DNA of 35,997 bases from a virus. The stretch lies in the UHGV virus genome UHGV-0350163; one strand, 5' to 3'. Numbering within the stretch: position 1 is the first letter of the stretch; each line of letters begins with the position of its first letter. The position numbers and the translations under genes are program-made. Positions 26,245 to 34,461 of the stretch are shown here, one piece after another. Under the pieces are notes generated by a model, which saw nothing but the letters and a program-made list of their open reading frames with translations, was not told the DNA's origin and did not search any database.

Positions 26245-26639
26245 TTACTCCTCCTTCTTGAATCTTTAACCAGCGCCACCATCACCCCGAAAAGCTGTTC
26301 ATCCGTCAGCCATTCGATCACATGTTGCTTATACATGTGAGATGCCAGTCCTTCCGCATACCCCCAGGAACGACCGGCATCAGCCAGCAACGCTTCAATT
26401 TTGGATAATACCGATTTTCTGCTCATTGCAACACGGGGGCGGCGACCTTTACCGGCGGGTGCCTTGCGCGGGAATCCCTGTTCGTGCATGTATTCCCGGA
26501 TGATGCGCAGTTCATTAAGATTGCAGCGTGTGGTGCTGGTTTTACCGGTCAGGCGGGCCAGCGTCTGGCGATAAAGGGCATCATCCCACCCCAGATACGC
26601 CTGACCGGCTTTAATGGCCCCGATCATCTTTTTCAGCAT
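26241..26639 (-). CDS. gemA: GemA-like protein (Mu gp16-like)
   Basis: ORF track gives 26241..26738; start placed at internal MLKKMIGAIKAG; position upstream of the activator as in Mu. Confidence 0.6.
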   Translation of the reverse strand: MLKKMIGAIKAGQAYLGWDDALYRQTLARLTGKTSTTRCNLNELRIIREYMHEQGFPRKAPAGKGRRPRVAMSRKSVLSKIEALLADAGRSWGYAEGLASHMYKQHVIEWLTDEQLFGVMVALVKDSRRRSK

Positions 26640-26925
26640 GTTTGTTATCCTCAAAACGTACGGTAAAACGTGAAACGCCAATCCCTGACAAGAACGCGGC
26701 GGCACGATCAAGAGACAGCCACGTCTTGTAATCGCCACGGCGTTCCTGTAGAAAATAGGACACCCCAGCGCGGCGATTCACAGCGAAGAGGTGATACACA
26801 CCACCGAACCGCTGCACGACGAACTCATCCACGCCACCGCTTTCAGCCTGTTGCCTGAAAGCTGCCATTCCGATTTGTTCAATCTTCATAATGACCAAAA
26901 CACTACTTTTGGCAGACCAAAACAC
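26611..26925 (-). CDS. Hypothetical protein (start uncertain)
   Basis: ORF with GTG start at 26925 or ATG at 26889; 3' end overlaps gemA start. Confidence 0.3.
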   Translation of the reverse strand: MFWSAKSSVLVIMKIEQIGMAAFRQQAESGGVDEFVVQRFGGVYHLFAVNRRAGVSYFLQERRGDYKTWLSLDRAAAFLSGIGVSRFTVRFEDNKHAEKDDRGH

Positions 26926-26938
26926 ATGTTTTGGTCTG
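26913..26938. promoter_or_regulatory. Perfect 12-bp inverted repeat CAGACCAAAACA-CA-TGTTTTGGTCTG with a third half-site GACCAAAACA at 26893-26902; candidate operator
   Basis: Read directly; sits in the intergenic gap upstream of the gemA/moron unit. Confidence 0.45.
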
Positions 26939-26956
26939 CGTTTGATTACTGTTCAA

Positions 26957-27175
26957 TCAACCCGCGTAATCGGGGCCGTGTTCCCATCTGGCATCGAGTA
27001 TTTCCGTTCCATCTGTCCGGCATGGGTTATCAAGTGCCATTTTTCCGCACTCCCCGTACTCGACATCGACAAAATCAGCAATATCATTGTCCGTTGCGTT
27101 ATCAGGAACGTCGATTTCAACCGTTACGGTGATAGTTTTCATCAGGTTGTTACTCCGTGATTCAGAAAATTTCAT
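26957..27175 (-). CDS. Small acidic protein of unknown function
   Basis: 72 aa (or about 61 aa from MKTITVTV), rich in Asp/Glu; 8 nt downstream of the secreted-protein gene. Confidence 0.45.
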   Translation of the reverse strand: MKFSESRSNNLMKTITVTVEIDVPDNATDNDIADFVDVEYGECGKMALDNPCRTDGTEILDARWEHGPDYAG

Positions 27176-27183
27176 GCCGGAAC

Positions 27184-27594
27184 TCAGTATGTGAAATAGA
27201 CAGTTGCCACGCCGTTATAGTGATCAAACGACACGGCGTTTACCTCATAACTGGCCGGGAGCTTCGAACCAAGAACGTATCCGGGCCACGTTTTCCATGG
27301 AATTTCTCTGCTCTCACTGTCGCCATATACCGTACATCCCAGTGAGCCTACAGCTTCATAAGAACGCTTACCGCACGTTATGAACCCCAGATTTAGCTTA
27401 CTGCCCTTAACAGAAATCGGGAGAGCACTGGCTGATGCGTTAGCAGCGTCCTGCTCCTGTTGGCTTGCGATATTCGCAGAGTTCGCAGCAGCTGCGGCAG
27501 CCGTAGTCGCAGCGGCAGATGCCACAATAACTGCTGAAGCCTGTGCCTGTTGGGTAACGGTCAGCAATGCCGCCACAAAAACCATTTTCTTCAC
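27184..27594 (-). CDS. Secreted protein with Ala-rich low-complexity linker
   Basis: 136 aa, GTG start preceded by AGGAGGT; signal peptide MKKMVFVAALLTVTQQAQA, then Ala/Ser/Thr-rich segment and a ~75 aa C-terminal domain. Confidence 0.6.
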   Translation of the reverse strand: MKKMVFVAALLTVTQQAQASAVIVASAAATTAAAAAANSANIASQQEQDAANASASALPISVKGSKLNLGFITCGKRSYEAVGSLGCTVYGDSESREIPWKTWPGYVLGSKLPASYEVNAVSFDHYNGVATVYFTY

Positions 27595-27609
27595 CTGGCA
27601 CCTCCTTTA

Positions 27610-27783
27610 CATACCGTGATTTTTCCTGCGGTTTTGCGCCGCGCTGGGCTTTTTGCAACAGCTGTGCAACATCACCCCGCAACACCCCGTCAACCTCACT
27701 CGTCTGTTACTAATCCTCAACCATCGCCAGACCCCAACACCGTTTCTGCGAGCTAACAGAATTTTTGCCTTACGGTTTTTCAT
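27610..27783 (-). CDS. Small basic protein, paralogue B (58 aa), not in ORF track
   Basis: Hand-translated: MKNRKAKILLARRNGVGVWRWLRISNRRVRLTGCCGVMLHSCCKKPSAAQNRRKNHGM. ATG overlaps the stop of paralogue A (ATGA). Confidence 0.4.
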
Positions 27784-27956
27784 CGTACTGCGTACCCTTT
27801 CTTCCGCCTGTTCTGTGACGCAGTAGGCTTACGCTTTGCGGCAAAAGCCACCTGACCAAATGGATGGAGTACCGCTATCTTATGGTTGCTAATAACCAGC
27901 TCCACCACACGCACAGGCCGCTGTAAAAGAAGTCGTTTTGCTTTACGGTTTTTCAT
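27783..27956 (-). CDS. Small basic protein, paralogue A (58 aa), not in ORF track
   Basis: Hand-translated: MKNRKAKRLLLQRPVRVVELVISNHKIAVLHPFGQVAFAAKRKPTASQNRRKKGYAVR. AGGAG 9 nt upstream of ATG. First 24 nt nearly identical to paralogue B. Confidence 0.4.
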
Positions 27957-27960
27957 CGTT

Positions 27961-28149
27961 TCATTCTCCTGTATTTACTACTGACTCTGCACTGTCAGCC
28001 CTGCGGCGCTCCTGAAGTTCCAGCATTGCGGCCCGGAAATCCTGCCACCATTCCTCATCGGCAACGGGTGTGTTCCGTTCCAGCACCTTGTCCGCATCGG
28101 CAATCAGTCTGCTCAGACTCTTATCGCTTATTCTGGTTTGCTGGTTCAC
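27961..28149 (-). CDS. Small acidic hypothetical protein
   Basis: 62 aa ORF, translationally coupled to neighbours. Confidence 0.4.
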   Translation of the reverse strand: MNQQTRISDKSLSRLIADADKVLERNTPVADEEWWQDFRAAMLELQERRRADSAESVVNTGE

Positions 28150-28370
28150 TGCGCCGCCTCCTGTTTTGCCACTTTAAACGCCCGTAACATCGGAACCGTT
28201 TTACCGGTGATGACGGTTCTCATTAAAAGACCGCCACCGCTCTCATGGCGCACTTCAGGGGCTACAAACAACGCCGCATCCACAACCCGGTTATAGCGGC
28301 GAAACTCCCAGAGCCAGCAGGTAACAATGATTTTTGCTTTAGTCCCATAGTTATAAAATTCAATATTCAT
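28146..28370 (-). CDS. Hypothetical protein
   Basis: 74 aa ORF, overlapping start/stop with neighbours. Confidence 0.4.
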   Translation of the reverse strand: MNIEFYNYGTKAKIIVTCWLWEFRRYNRVVDAALFVAPEVRHESGGGLLMRTVITGKTVPMLRAFKVAKQEAAQ

Positions 28371-28594
28371 TTGCAGTTAAACCTCCTTTTGTGACGTTCT
28401 ACAGCGGCTTTCATGGCGTTGTGCACGGTTCTTTTAATAATCCGGCGTCCCACACTGTCATAGAACCGCCACCGGGAAGCCCCCGGATATTTGGGAAACT
28501 CAACCGCCGCGCTGCCGTCATTCATCCTGTATTCGTGGCGTTCTCCTGGCGGCTGGTATATTGCTTCGGTAACACTGAGAAGTTTAAAAGCCAT
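28367..28594 (-). CDS. Hypothetical protein
   Basis: 75 aa ORF, overlapping start/stop with neighbours. Confidence 0.4.
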   Translation of the reverse strand: MAFKLLSVTEAIYQPPGERHEYRMNDGSAAVEFPKYPGASRWRFYDSVGRRIIKRTVHNAMKAAVERHKRRFNCK

Positions 28595-28596
28595 CG

Positions 28597-29307
28597 TTAT
28601 CCCCTCCCCAGTGCCAGCGGTCTGTTGCTCTGACCATTAACTCCCTGATGCAGTCTGGCGTTTTTCCCGGCGATAAAACCGGCAGTAGCGGCAAACTCTG
28701 CACCCCGACACGCTTTAGCTGTGCGCATATCCCCGTCGCGCAGTCCTTTAGTGCTGTGCAGGTTCTTTCTGTAAAGCTCAAGGCGGCTTTTTTCTTCCGG
28801 GGATACGTCATACACCGCAATGACATCACGGGCACCAAAGACCCAGCCTTCGCAGAACTGGTCGCCACGGGCTACCCGCGTGGACGGACCACAACGTTTG
28901 CAGTGTTTATCCTGATATTTCTTGCGCTCTGCCATCATCTGACGGGAAAGCACATCAAACGCGTAGGCCGCAATTTCCGGGCGGCTGTCAGGACCATAAA
29001 AACGAACGTAACGTTTGAGTGAACCAGAAGCCCGGTATTCGCCGGATATGTAACACTCGACACCGAAGGCTTTACAGACCAGGTCACACAGGATGTGCAT
29101 ATAACGCGGCGGTGTACTGGCATCACTCGGCGCACCCGCGCTGGCAGCTTCCTGAATGTCGAACAATTCAGCGTCGTTTTCGCTGATACCATGCTGGCGC
29201 ATATAAGCCTGGGCTTTTGCAATAGCGTTAGCGGCTTCTTCCGGGCTTGATGTCCCTCTTGCAAGGCGTAACAGCTTTTTAATTTTGGCGATGTATTTAT
29301 TTTTCAT
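28597..29307 (-). CDS. Early-region protein with DUF2786-like N-terminus
   Basis: 236 aa; N-terminus KIKKLLRLARGTSSPEEAANAIAKAQAYMRQHGI resembles a prophage DUF family (from memory); Cys-rich central part (CKRCGP...FCEGW). Confidence 0.5.
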   Translation of the reverse strand: MKNKYIAKIKKLLRLARGTSSPEEAANAIAKAQAYMRQHGISENDAELFDIQEAASAGAPSDASTPPRYMHILCDLVCKAFGVECYISGEYRASGSLKRYVRFYGPDSRPEIAAYAFDVLSRQMMAERKKYQDKHCKRCGPSTRVARGDQFCEGWVFGARDVIAVYDVSPEEKSRLELYRKNLHSTKGLRDGDMRTAKACRGAEFAATAGFIAGKNARLHQGVNGQSNRPLALGRG

Positions 29308-31506: not shown

Positions 31507-31525
31507 TCAGTGAATTAACATTTCT
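31507..31525. repeat. 19-bp perfect direct repeat, copy 2 (encodes the last codons and stop of B)
   Basis: Identical to 31134-31152. Confidence 0.9.
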
Positions 31526-32400
31526 GCGAATTTATCTATGGCCTGCACACTGACCGGCGCATCGCTGATATCGCAAATCCGGTACACACCGCGCGCCAGT
31601 TTGAACAGGCGGCGGGTATTACCCAGCGAGCGCGCGTAAAGCGCCTCGCTGATTTCCGGTTCTGCTGCTTCCGGCATCAGCCCGGTGGCTATCTGGTTAA
31701 AATCTTCCTGCGCCAGCGTGTCGCCCAGGTTAAGCGCCAGCGCCACGCGGCTGTATAACTGCGCAAATTCACCACGACGCCCCTTGAGATTAATCAGAAG
31801 ACGAGGCATACCCGCCAGGACAACCCCGATACCCGCTTTATCATGCAGACGGCGCAGAACCTCCAGTGCGCGATAGGGGAGCAGTTCAGCTTCGTCCACC
31901 ATCAGCAGACGACCGGAATCACGCAGTTCGCGCACACAGGCATCAATCAGTTCGTGAATGTTGCCGCGAACCTTTACCCCCAGCTGGCGGCACAACTCCT
32001 CAAGCAGTGTCCTGGCTGTATAGCCCGGGTCAGCCTCAATCAGGACCGCATCCCGGTTTCTGGCTGCGTATTCACGCAGAATCATTGTTTTGCCAAGACC
32101 AGCTGCGCCATACAGTACACAGATTTCACATTCCAGGTGAGCGTAGGCCAGCACCTCCAGTCCTTTGGCAGCCATACCGGTGGCAACAAATTTCGCTTTA
32201 ATACGGCGGCTGTTTTCCTTTTCCCGCTCACGGGTCACAAAGGCAGAAATGCGTTCTTCAATATCAGCCATATCGCCCTGATATTTACCCTGTAAATACT
32301 GGTTGATAACGGCGCTGCTACGACCAATAGCACGGGCGACGTGGGTCTGCGTATAGCCGCGACGGGCCATTACGTCATTTAATTGCGTAATTAAACTCAT
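31507..32400 (-). CDS. B: Transposition ATPase B (MuB-like, AAA+)
   Basis: 297 aa; N-terminal HTH-like region, Walker A (GAAGLGKT) and Walker B-like (LLMVDEAE); directly downstream of the transposase. Confidence 0.9.
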   Translation of the reverse strand: MSLITQLNDVMARRGYTQTHVARAIGRSSAVINQYLQGKYQGDMADIEERISAFVTREREKENSRRIKAKFVATGMAAKGLEVLAYAHLECEICVLYGAAGLGKTMILREYAARNRDAVLIEADPGYTARTLLEELCRQLGVKVRGNIHELIDACVRELRDSGRLLMVDEAELLPYRALEVLRRLHDKAGIGVVLAGMPRLLINLKGRRGEFAQLYSRVALALNLGDTLAQEDFNQIATGLMPEAAEPEISEALYARSLGNTRRLFKLARGVYRICDISDAPVSVQAIDKFAEMLIH

Positions 32401-32418: not shown

Positions 32419-34461
32419 TTAACGGTTGTTTGTGCCGTTTTTCTTTAAATTGCGCTCGCGTTCAGATGCGAATAAATAAAGTTCTTCTTTTTCCTTTTTC
32501 TCCGGGCGCTCCAGTCCATATCCCAGATTAAAGTCTGGCTTCTGCGTAATAGCCGGGGTAAGCTCGCGTTTAGCCTCTTCGATTTTCTGCGTGGCCCGTG
32601 CAATGCGGCCCCTGACGCGTTTCTCCAGTTTTTGTTCGATAACTGGTTTAGCGAAGGCATCAACCTTGTTACCGTTCCAGATGGCATCGCAGATATAAGA
32701 GCCATCAGCCCGCCGGACAATGACGCTGTTTGCATCATGAATATCGTAACTGACCCTGACTTCATTCCCGTGCTCTGCGGCCAGATCATATGAGTAATAA
32801 ATATTGTTGAATAACTGAATTTCCCCGCGAAATGTTTTGCGCGTCACTTCCGGTCTGAACATTTCATGCAGTTCTTCCGGCGACAGGAAATCAATTTCAA
32901 CATTCTGCTCTTTTATCAGTTTCCGGCGATACGCTGCCGGGCTGTAATATTCGCCATCCTCTTTGCGGGGAAGGCTGCTGTGTGGCCGGTTGTTATAGCG
33001 TCTGACCTCCAGCTCTATGGCCGCCATCAGTTGCTCAAAGGTGGGGATTTCATCCCTCGCCTTAACCTGCCGTTTTGTCAGTTCTTTCCCTTTGTGGGTG
33101 GCCTTAATGGCCGACTGCATAATCCGTTGCTGCATCATTACGGTTTCCTTGTCTGCATCCTTTGCGCAGTACGTCTGGAAACTCAGTGCCACGTCTTTGG
33201 GTATTCCTTTGTTTGCCCGTTCTATTACCCCGCGCCCCTGCGGGTTACCCGGTATCCCCGTGTGATGCTCCACACCCAGCCGGGGCAGAATCCCGGTAAT
33301 ATCGGCATCAAGCACCCGGTTTTTTTCGCCGCCCCCGTTATCGGAATAATAAATCAGCGGTATCCCGTGCTGTGCCATGCCGTAACGCAACGCATCAGCA
33401 ACGGCTATCACGTTTTCCGACAGGGACAGTGACCAGCCCACAACAAAGCGCTGCCCCGCATCCATAACCAGCGTCACTTCTGGCCGGAAAATATTGCCGG
33501 TCAGGGGGTTAAACGCGGTCATTTTCATACAGTGACCATCCCCGACCCATACCGCATTAACCGGTAATGATGTCCACTCGCGCCGCACAAAGGGATTGAG
33601 CGAACGCCAGGCTGAACCTGTGGAGCGGAAACGCTCCTTAACAATCACCGGGACGCTGCTTAACACTCGTCTTACTGCGTGAACTGAAGGCAGTGCCGCC
33701 AGCATTCCCGCATCATTCGCGTGTTTCTCATGCCACCAGGCTGAAAACTCGCGATAAGCGTATTCAACGGTCGGGCGCTTCCATGAGCGATAGAACATAA
33801 AGAAATCGCTCAGCCACCAGACCTGCTCCCACGGAGTTCCCTTATGATGACCGGGAGCCAGTAACGCCAGTAACTGATTGGCATCACCGCGCGCCATCAC
33901 CCAGCTGGAGTACCAGCTATCCAGGCTGCCGGTGCTGACACCGGTTCGCTTTCCCTGACGTGCATTTGCAGTATTCGCTGCTTCGATAATGCGGTCAGGT
34001 AACGCCCCCATGCGCACACCATCAACGATGTGCTTTAACGCGGCCTTCCTGGTCATTCCGGCGTATTCACGCAGTTTATGCACTTCAGTAGCCAGCAATA
34101 TCCGCGCATCAGCAATGGCCTTTTGCTTGTCGGTCAGTGCCTGGACTTCGCGTAATGCCAGTTCCGGGCATTTGACCATCACTTCCAGTTCATCGCGAAC
34201 GGCGACGTTTTTAACTGCCTTCTGCTCAACCACGGCGGGCAGTTGTGCATCTTCCAGGACCTGATGAGTCAGGCGCTTACGTAAAACTTTCTGCGCTTCA
34301 GCGGGCAGGCTGTCGATGTGATACTCGAATGCTTTTGTGCCTTCACGCTTGCGCTTCCATTCCGGGTGCGTCTCTGTGATCCGATTGAGCGTCCATCGCA
34401 CCCCCTGAACTGTACCGGGCAAACGAGGAAGACCGGCCAGCTCATTGGCTGAATAAAACAT
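32419..34461 (-). CDS. A: DDE transposase A (MuA-like)
   Basis: 680 aa; N-terminus (ANELAGLPRLPGTVQGVRW...IDSLPAEAQ) and the central DDE core (WVGDGH...DNGGG) resemble MuA (from memory); ATG overlaps ner stop (TAATG). Confidence 0.9.
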   Translation of the reverse strand: MFYSANELAGLPRLPGTVQGVRWTLNRITETHPEWKRKREGTKAFEYHIDSLPAEAQKVLRKRLTHQVLEDAQLPAVVEQKAVKNVAVRDELEVMVKCPELALREVQALTDKQKAIADARILLATEVHKLREYAGMTRKAALKHIVDGVRMGALPDRIIEAANTANARQGKRTGVSTGSLDSWYSSWVMARGDANQLLALLAPGHHKGTPWEQVWWLSDFFMFYRSWKRPTVEYAYREFSAWWHEKHANDAGMLAALPSVHAVRRVLSSVPVIVKERFRSTGSAWRSLNPFVRREWTSLPVNAVWVGDGHCMKMTAFNPLTGNIFRPEVTLVMDAGQRFVVGWSLSLSENVIAVADALRYGMAQHGIPLIYYSDNGGGEKNRVLDADITGILPRLGVEHHTGIPGNPQGRGVIERANKGIPKDVALSFQTYCAKDADKETVMMQQRIMQSAIKATHKGKELTKRQVKARDEIPTFEQLMAAIELEVRRYNNRPHSSLPRKEDGEYYSPAAYRRKLIKEQNVEIDFLSPEELHEMFRPEVTRKTFRGEIQLFNNIYYSYDLAAEHGNEVRVSYDIHDANSVIVRRADGSYICDAIWNGNKVDAFAKPVIEQKLEKRVRGRIARATQKIEEAKRELTPAITQKPDFNLGYGLERPEKKEKEELYLFASERERNLKKNGTNNR

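Follow-up and report, generated by a model that had tools for sequence, protein, structure and literature searches.

The virus genome UHGV-0350163, which was analysed over its whole stretch of 35,997 nucleotides (hereafter the window), carries a tandem pair of small and highly basic open reading frames (ORFs), here called ORF A and ORF B. These are real genes and full-length members of PHROG 1380, a family without an assigned function or a recorded link to Sra. Following the profile comparisons described below, it seems probable that PHROG 1380 is a remote relative of Sra (also known as RpsV, ribosomal protein S22 or protein D). It is this putative remote homology that is new here; the genes themselves were already in the databases, within a known PHROG: the exact sequence of ORF A is public as WP_170737541.1, and that of ORF B as CBG87058.1 from a Citrobacter rodentium ICC168 prophage (and is found in E. 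coli as well), both under the name hypothetical protein.

Sequence and coding status of the gene pair

ORF A runs from 27956 to 27780 (MKNRKAKRLLLQRPVRVVELVISNHKIAVLHPFGQVAFAAKRKPTASQNRRKKGYAVR; subtype A of PHROG 1380) and ORF B from 27783 to 27607 (MKNRKAKILLARRNGVGVWRWLRISNRRVRLTGCCGVMLHSCCKKPSAAQNRRKNHGM; subtype B), each with 58 codons plus a stop. The two back-to-back 58-codon ORFs proposed by the first-pass annotation, which had been made from the letters of the window alone and gave no strand, are thus present, both on the minus strand. The ATGA overlap between the stop of ORF A and the start of ORF B could be read from the sequence (27780-27783, minus strand), as could the AGGAG upstream of the first ORF, a Shine-Dalgarno sequence at 27966-27970 (minus strand), 9 nucleotides 5' of the ATG of ORF A and within the last codons of a preceding ORF of 62 amino acids (27961-28149). 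A well-placed Shine-Dalgarno sequence of its own is absent from ORF B, and the ATGA overlap suggests that the two genes are translationally coupled.

Both genes start with a 21-mer that codes for MKNRKAK, the start of the N-terminal helix and the part in common with Sra (27936-27956 for ORF A and, from a pattern scan of the window, 27763-27783 for ORF B, both on the minus strand). These 21-mers are equal at 20 of the 21 positions, and a search of the window for the pattern ATGAAAAACCGTAARGCAAAA gives exactly two matches, at the two ORF starts, against none in 100 shuffles. The near-identity had been claimed for the first 24 nucleotides; it holds for 21 of these and ends with codon 7, so that over all 24 it amounts to 20 matches. 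The C-terminal motif (K/R)KPxAxQNRRK is found in both ORFs and, as had been noticed before, is encoded by divergent codons (CAG AAC AGG CGG AAG in ORF A versus CAA AAC CGC AGG AAA in ORF B). That the middles differ completely is wrong, given that the two proteins align from end to end with 44% identity (24/54; E 3e-10) and have an L-x-ISN core in common. Both have a calculated isoelectric point of 12.0, with 16 lysines and arginines against one acidic residue in ORF A and none in ORF B.

For the analysis of coding status, 148 related loci from IMG/VR were combined with three annotated records and the window, yielding 242 units (i.e. single copies of the small gene), 91 of which differ from each other in nucleotide sequence. 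Of these 91, 83 keep the frame open, across at least five protein subtypes that vary in length in frame (58-64 amino acids) on a common skeleton, MKNRKAK-x-L-L ... h-R-(I/L/V)-S-N-(R/H)-(R/K) ... K-P-(S/T)-A-(A/S)-Q-N-R-(W/R)-K. For the three large subtypes, the proposed frame has a ratio of non-synonymous to synonymous change (pN/pS) of 0.28-0.32, compared with about 0.9-3.6 for the two remaining sense frames; in a small subtype of seven sequences the proposed frame gives 0.49. Moreover, the proposed frame is the only one that is free of stops in the 83 intact units, all other frames being interrupted. One antisense frame reached a pN/pS of 0.26-0.37, but its wobble positions coincide with those of the sense frame, which it mirrors, and it contains approximately one stop per unit; antisense coding was therefore rejected.

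Constraint is strongest over the N-terminal 11 residues, with a pN/pS of 0.05 (at a pS of 0.12), intermediate in the C-terminal motif (0.17) and the core (0.22), and weakest in the loops (0.38-0.47). Because synonymous change did accumulate at the conserved 5' end, this end is constrained as protein rather than as a DNA element, and the alternative that it is a regulatory DNA element only is therefore rejected. A scan of positions 27000-28600 with Rfam 15 gave chance-level matches only (E>1). The earlier view that ORF A and ORF B are real genes, in which the protein is conserved while synonymous sites diverge, is in this way borne out by the open frame across subtypes and the frame-specific pN/pS, the homologues keeping the reading frame at a pN/pS of about 0.3. 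The paralogy that had been proposed is real as well, since both ORFs match PHROG 1380 over their full length (ORF A with E 4.2e-23, residues 1-58 on profile positions 1-60 of 62; ORF B with E 3.6e-28, residues 1-57 on positions 1-57 of 62). The duplication is not restricted to the window, heterotypic pairs being the commonest arrangement throughout the family.

Eight of the 91 distinct units are not intact: some are frameshifted and have alternative C-termini (such as ...QLLQKAQRGAKPLEKPLAQ), others lack a start, and some copies of the family are evidently decaying. Examples of altered copies are P0004-P0006, P0073 and P0162, and the lengths of P0073 (119 amino acids) and P0162 (123 amino acids) would fit two units that may have been fused in frame. 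At one locus a unit is joined by a frameshift to the downstream gene, resulting in an ORF of 234 amino acids. In part because the called lengths of decaying and fused copies vary, annotation of the family is inconsistent (36-102 amino acids; in the closest E. coli relative the Prokaryotic Genome Annotation Pipeline calls ORF B alone), and gene callers often miss its genes.

Probable remote homology to Sra

Neither ORF A nor ORF B has a match at threshold in Pfam, NCBIfam or PADLOC. The lead to Sra was a marginal NCBIfam match, and the sequence of E. coli Sra (45 amino acids) was verified from the K-12 genome. A Sra profile was built from 34 distinct orthologues out of 45 Enterobacteriaceae genomes, and the curated cut-offs are 25 bits for Pfam PF08136 (SRA_like), with which E. 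coli Sra itself scores 108 bits, and 35 bits for NCBIfam PRK10057 (Sra). In a direct comparison the family profile scored 19.1 against the Sra profile (P 0.0018, 30 columns), a score that was reached by 1/300 and 2/300 column shuffles and compares with 6.5 for reversed Sra.

The stronger evidence comes from a third group of phage proteins. A tblastn search with Sra found phage proteins with Sra-like N-termini that lie just under the Pfam threshold, and a scan of viral sequences found a protein of 66 amino acids (locus L210) that passes it, with 25.5 bits versus the required 25 (E 1.7e-5). This protein has no PHROG family at E<=0.01, and its comparison with the PHROG 1380 profile gave a probability of 86% (P 5e-6). 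It belongs to what is here called the bridge subfamily, which comprises 28 loci (L212-L239) and has a relative in Serratia phage BZS1 (p43). The bridge profile, built from 20 of the 21 distinct sequences, was aligned with hhalign both to the family (96.3% probability, P 1.9e-9, 47 columns, z 14.7) and to Sra (95.2% probability, P 2.6e-8, 46 columns, z 14.5). Neither score was reached by any of 200 shuffles, and the two alignments rest on the same residues of the bridge (1-47/50). In order to exclude that the bridge is assembled from two unrelated halves (i.e. a chimera), the N-terminal helix was removed from all three alignments, which left z values of 5.4 for Sra and bridge, 6.8 for family and bridge, and 3.6 for family and Sra. 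Taken at the level of sequence, PHROG 1380 is therefore placed as a probable remote relative of Sra, and by the threshold of Pfam SRA_like it is outside that family.

In the joint alignment N-R-x-A and S-N are invariant and common to the phage proteins and Sra. Relative to the Sra motif MKSNRQARH(I/L)LGLD, the phage proteins have a longer variable loop in place of GLD, with K instead of Q and K/I instead of H; the core motif of the Sra lineage used in the comparison is (K/R)(I/L/V)SNx(R/K)K(V/I)V. A third Sra motif, (K/R)K(R/K)P-x-A, was dropped, as it is not conserved across the Sra orthologues. The part in common with Sra is also the most constrained part of the phage proteins, and both groups are small, very basic and centred on Enterobacteriaceae. 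On this reading PHROG 1380 would be a branch of the Sra lineage (RpsV/'S22', Pfam SRA_like) that has diverged and is carried by phages, and in which an N-terminal helix, M-(K/N)-N-R-x-A-(K/R)-x-L-L, would be followed by a beta-hairpin core, h-(R/K)-(I/L/V)-S-N-(R/Q/H)-(R/K)-x-h, and a basic tail. An AlphaFold2 model of ORF B, made from an alignment of 62 sequences, has a helix at residues 4-12, strands at 20-23, 28-32 and 38-43, and a second helix at 48-56.

Several points weigh against a relationship with Sra, or against what may be read into it. Scans with single sequences do not back membership in the Sra models: in a family-wide scan ORF A and ORF B had no match to Pfam SRA_like at E<=10, and two of the 62 family members touch PRK10057 at E ~0.17, below the NCBIfam threshold. 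The direct signal between family and Sra is weak, and since Sra had been chosen as a candidate after the fact, it amounts to a real signal for one comparison rather than to proof. The signal that all three groups have in common consists of two short motifs of about 21-25 residues in total, beyond which the alignment of Sra and bridge is uninformative (10 aligned columns in the test on the body alone), and convergence of motifs or recombination of short modules may account for it. The model of ORF B is of moderate confidence (predicted local distance difference test, pLDDT, 74; predicted template modelling score, pTM, 0.42), and a shallower alignment of 21 sequences gave a different fold, one long helix (pLDDT 63), which was discarded for the 62-sequence model. 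Sra has been described since 2001 as an abundant 30S-bound protein of the stationary phase, with a function and a binding site that are still unknown (PMC10502375). Sra has no solved structure, the copy of the PDB that was searched containing no Sra chain, and sequence searches of the PDB with the family profile and with Sra gave no matches. Because of this state of knowledge on Sra, homology to it transfers little mechanistic detail, and expression or binding data on PHROG 1380 were not found in the literature.

Two further phage proteins with Sra-like N-termini were considered. E. coli phage Sa179lw gp67 was rejected as an intermediate, as it does not match the family profile (P 0.24). Hafnia phage yong2 encodes a protein of 94 amino acids (locus L153, 2486-2770) with a Sra-like N-terminus, NRKARRLLGLDYKLSN, and an unrelated C-terminal half; its gene lies between hypothetical genes and a gene for a 3'-5' exoribonuclease, with a LexA-like repressor and an integrase just downstream. 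It seems, as far as can be read from these sequences, that the N-terminal module of Sra is combined with different bodies in phages.

Distribution and arrangement of the family

Known examples of PHROG 1380 include p50 and p51 of phiV10, gp057 of RCS47 and genes of the TL-2011b/c and Shiga toxin (Stx) 2c phages. When 1.84 billion cluster representatives were searched exhaustively with the profile, only 44 matched, while a word-indexed profile search gave 175 clusters, all of which are named 'hypothetical' and all named hosts of which are Enterobacteriaceae (Escherichia, Salmonella, Enterobacter, Citrobacter, Klebsiella and Phytobacter). As a DNA cassette the genes are found in 549 of 5426 complete E. 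coli genomes (~10%), with 264 of the places on plasmids; carriers include the P1-like phage-plasmid RCS47, Stx2c phages, TL-2011b/c and phiV10.

Among 107 non-redundant loci the arrays are A-C (45), B alone (26), C alone (20), A-B (4, the type of the window), B-D (4) and A-D (3). Subtype A stands alone once and is first in the array whenever it is present, subtypes B and C often stand alone, and subtype D is always last. The signals seen in the window recur at the other loci, where the same -4 overlap (ATGA) links 81 two-unit arrays and the first two units in all four three-unit arrays, and where a block CAGGAGA-N7-ATG is kept 5' of the first units. At most of these loci the stop of the last unit abuts the ATG of the next gene, which is variable. 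A zinc ribbon based on conserved cysteines was considered for the family and rejected, subtype A having no conserved cysteines.

In phiV10 (p49; locus L003, 1831-2007) and, as equivalents, in many lambdoid loci, another very basic ORF of 58 amino acids, ending in ...AAARREAKKRRRAKR before its stop, overlaps the start of the first unit by ATGA and is not recognised by the hidden Markov model of the family. This ORF may encode a third small basic partner that has diverged further, or may just be the tail of the frame of the upstream gene.

Proposed function and alternative explanations

All long ORFs of the window are on the minus strand. Judging by matches to GemA and Mor, and by the size and order of two ORFs, the window is a Mu-like prophage; the two ORFs, of 680 amino acids (32419-34461) and 297 amino acids (31507-32400), are candidate MuA- and MuB-like genes on these grounds. 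ORF A and ORF B are part of the Mu-type early region, with a DUF2786/DUF7168 gene to one side and GemA/Mor to the other, among neighbours without known function; in other phages the units lie in accessory regions beside ead/Ea22-like genes. Since no promoter-like site was seen on the gene strand near the pair, ORF A and ORF B are most likely expressed within the early operon, and from this position an early timing is most likely as well.

Tight binding to the 30S subunit is known for E. coli Sra only (PMC10502375). Because PHROG 1380 appears to be distantly related to this 30S-associated protein, the host ribosome is probably where ORF A and ORF B act, and the suggestion of ribosome binding in the first-pass annotation, then a guess, gains support from the putative remote homology. 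In the sequence of events that could follow, the early operon would be transcribed at induction or infection, the two proteins would be made and would bind, like Sra, to the 30S subunit of the host (16S rRNA), and the bound phage proteins would change ribosome availability or hibernation to the benefit of the phage, with a presumed effect on translation. Heterotypic pairs, with A ahead of B, C or D, are frequent, which suggests that the partners either have two separate, non-redundant binding specificities or form a heterodimer. Our reading of ORF A and ORF B as translationally coupled early genes of a Mu-like prophage that are Sra-like and act on the host 30S subunit is accordingly put forward as a tentative one.

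An unlikely alternative is that the two proteins are small regulators that bind nucleic acid, with DNA or the mRNA of phage or host as the target instead of the ribosome, for example as an arm-type or AP2-like DNA binder with a three-stranded sheet, or as an arginine-rich RNA binder in early transcription or antitermination, in which case the resemblance to Sra would reflect a generic basic nucleic-acid-binding module. Significant structural similarity to a solved member of the integrase arm-type or AP2-like three-stranded-sheet DNA-binding domains was not found.

A similarly low probability is given to the proposal that ORF A and ORF B are 'moron'-type factors of host takeover or counter-defence, directed at a host protein or a defence system, with the relation to Sra being uninformative on function and the variable middle and multiple co-resident subtypes reflecting an arms race. 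It would suit the fact that temperate phages as different as Mu-like, P1-like, lambdoid/Stx and phiV10 have the genes in accessory regions, the genes clearly having been exchanged as a cassette, as well as the presence of at least five subtypes with conserved ends and variable middles, the heterotypic tandem arrays (mainly A-C, and A-B as in the window) and the relaxed constraint in the loops. However, pN/pS is <=1 in every region, the neighbouring genes vary, no link of the family to any defence system was found, and PADLOC-DB contains no family that matches any of six PHROG 1380 members at E<=1.

That the ORFs are non-functional, as by-products of a repeated DNA or RNA element (a recombination boundary or small RNA) or as decaying duplicates, is essentially excluded: gene callers do often skip or mis-start units, some copies are frameshifted or fused, and the 5' 21-mer is nearly invariant as DNA, but purifying selection is specific to the proposed frame while the other frames carry stops, the C-terminal motif is kept with different codons, the N-terminus combines its very low pN/pS with measurable pS, no Rfam match was found, and both the Shine-Dalgarno sequence and the ATGA coupling are conserved.

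If ORF A and ORF B are indeed Sra-like proteins that act on the 30S subunit, a wider and more speculative possibility, which we consider doubtful, is that Sra is one domesticated or exchanged member of a larger and more diverse temperate-phage family of small 30S-binding proteins instead of having been born de novo, and that Mu-like, P1-like and lambdoid phages deploy such proteins early, often as heterotypic pairs, on host hibernation or translation. A 2025 preprint proposes Sra as a de novo gene of Enterobacteriaceae (10.1101/2025.11.04.686544). Given a diverse sister family in phages, Sra could instead have originated through exchange with them. Such a family also suggests that ribosome-directed factors are carried by temperate phages, including Stx phages and P1-like phage-plasmids, in about a tenth of complete E. 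coli genomes. More directly, the putative relationship provides a functional lead for the unannotated PHROG 1380 and a handle on the function of Sra, as the family supplies natural variation that points to the residues important for function, namely N-R-x-A of helix 1 and S-N of the hairpin.

Neighbouring features

Downstream of the pair, a minus-strand gene of 136 amino acids (27184-27594; phrog_8805, no known function) has a GTG start 12 nucleotides past the stop of ORF B, and its product has a signal-peptide-like N-terminus and an alanine-rich stretch. Further on, a hairpin that is perfectly palindromic and has a stem of 12 bp, GCAGACCAAAACACATGTTTTGGTCTGC, is located at 26912-26939, between the minus-strand ORFs 26957-27175 and 26611-26925. 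Nearly the same hairpin stands directly 3' of the small-gene unit in approximately five other loci; possible roles are those of a terminator, a processing site or a boundary for recombination of the cassette.

Comparison with known systems

The closest known counterpart of the family is probably Sra itself. Both are tiny (45 amino acids for Sra versus 58) and very basic, and occur in a narrow host clade. In each the N-terminus itself reads M-K-(S)-N-R-x-A-(R/K)-x-(I/L)-L, the motif after it is h-(K/R)-I-S-N-x-(R/K)-(K/R)-h-V, and the tail is basic. In contrast to the phage genes, which are found in a Mu-like early operon (as in the window) or in phage accessory regions, and often as heterotypic tandem pairs, Sra is encoded by a single chromosomal gene in the bdm-sra locus (in E. 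coli, sra is located next to bdm). The phage proteins furthermore have a loop after helix 1 that is longer by 8-13 residues, and an extra conserved C-terminal helix, KPSAAQNR(W/R)KNH, which is absent from Sra. Sra rises in the stationary phase and is grouped with the hibernation factors (PMC10502375, PMC9959377). Loss of sra is reported to cause sensitivity to antibiotics when HipA is expressed (cited in PMC10502375). A link between phages and Sra was not found in the literature, a search in which 'SRA' is confounded by 'Sequence Read Archive'.

The other Sra-like phage proteins (QXN68753 of yong2, gp67 of Sa179lw and the bridge subfamily) have the NR(K/Q)AR(R)LLG helix and the (I/L)SN core in common with the family. 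The bridge subfamily also has KPS and a basic C-terminal motif at the same spacing as in the family, and differs from it by a distinct middle and a longer tail, whereas the yong2 and Sa179lw proteins have unrelated C-terminal halves and remain under the Pfam threshold (24.4 and 22.3 bits, respectively). In GenBank, QXN68753 is labelled '30S ribosomal protein subunit S22 family'; it is a different protein from those of PHROG 1380.

Virus-encoded ribosomal proteins such as bS21 (PMC6375957, PMC9723584) resemble the family in concept, being small, basic, phage-borne and 30S-associated proteins that presumably bias host translation. S22/Sra is not mentioned in the survey of such proteins. The bS21-type proteins have no sequence relation to the family and are bona fide core ribosomal proteins, mostly of lytic or large phages of other hosts.
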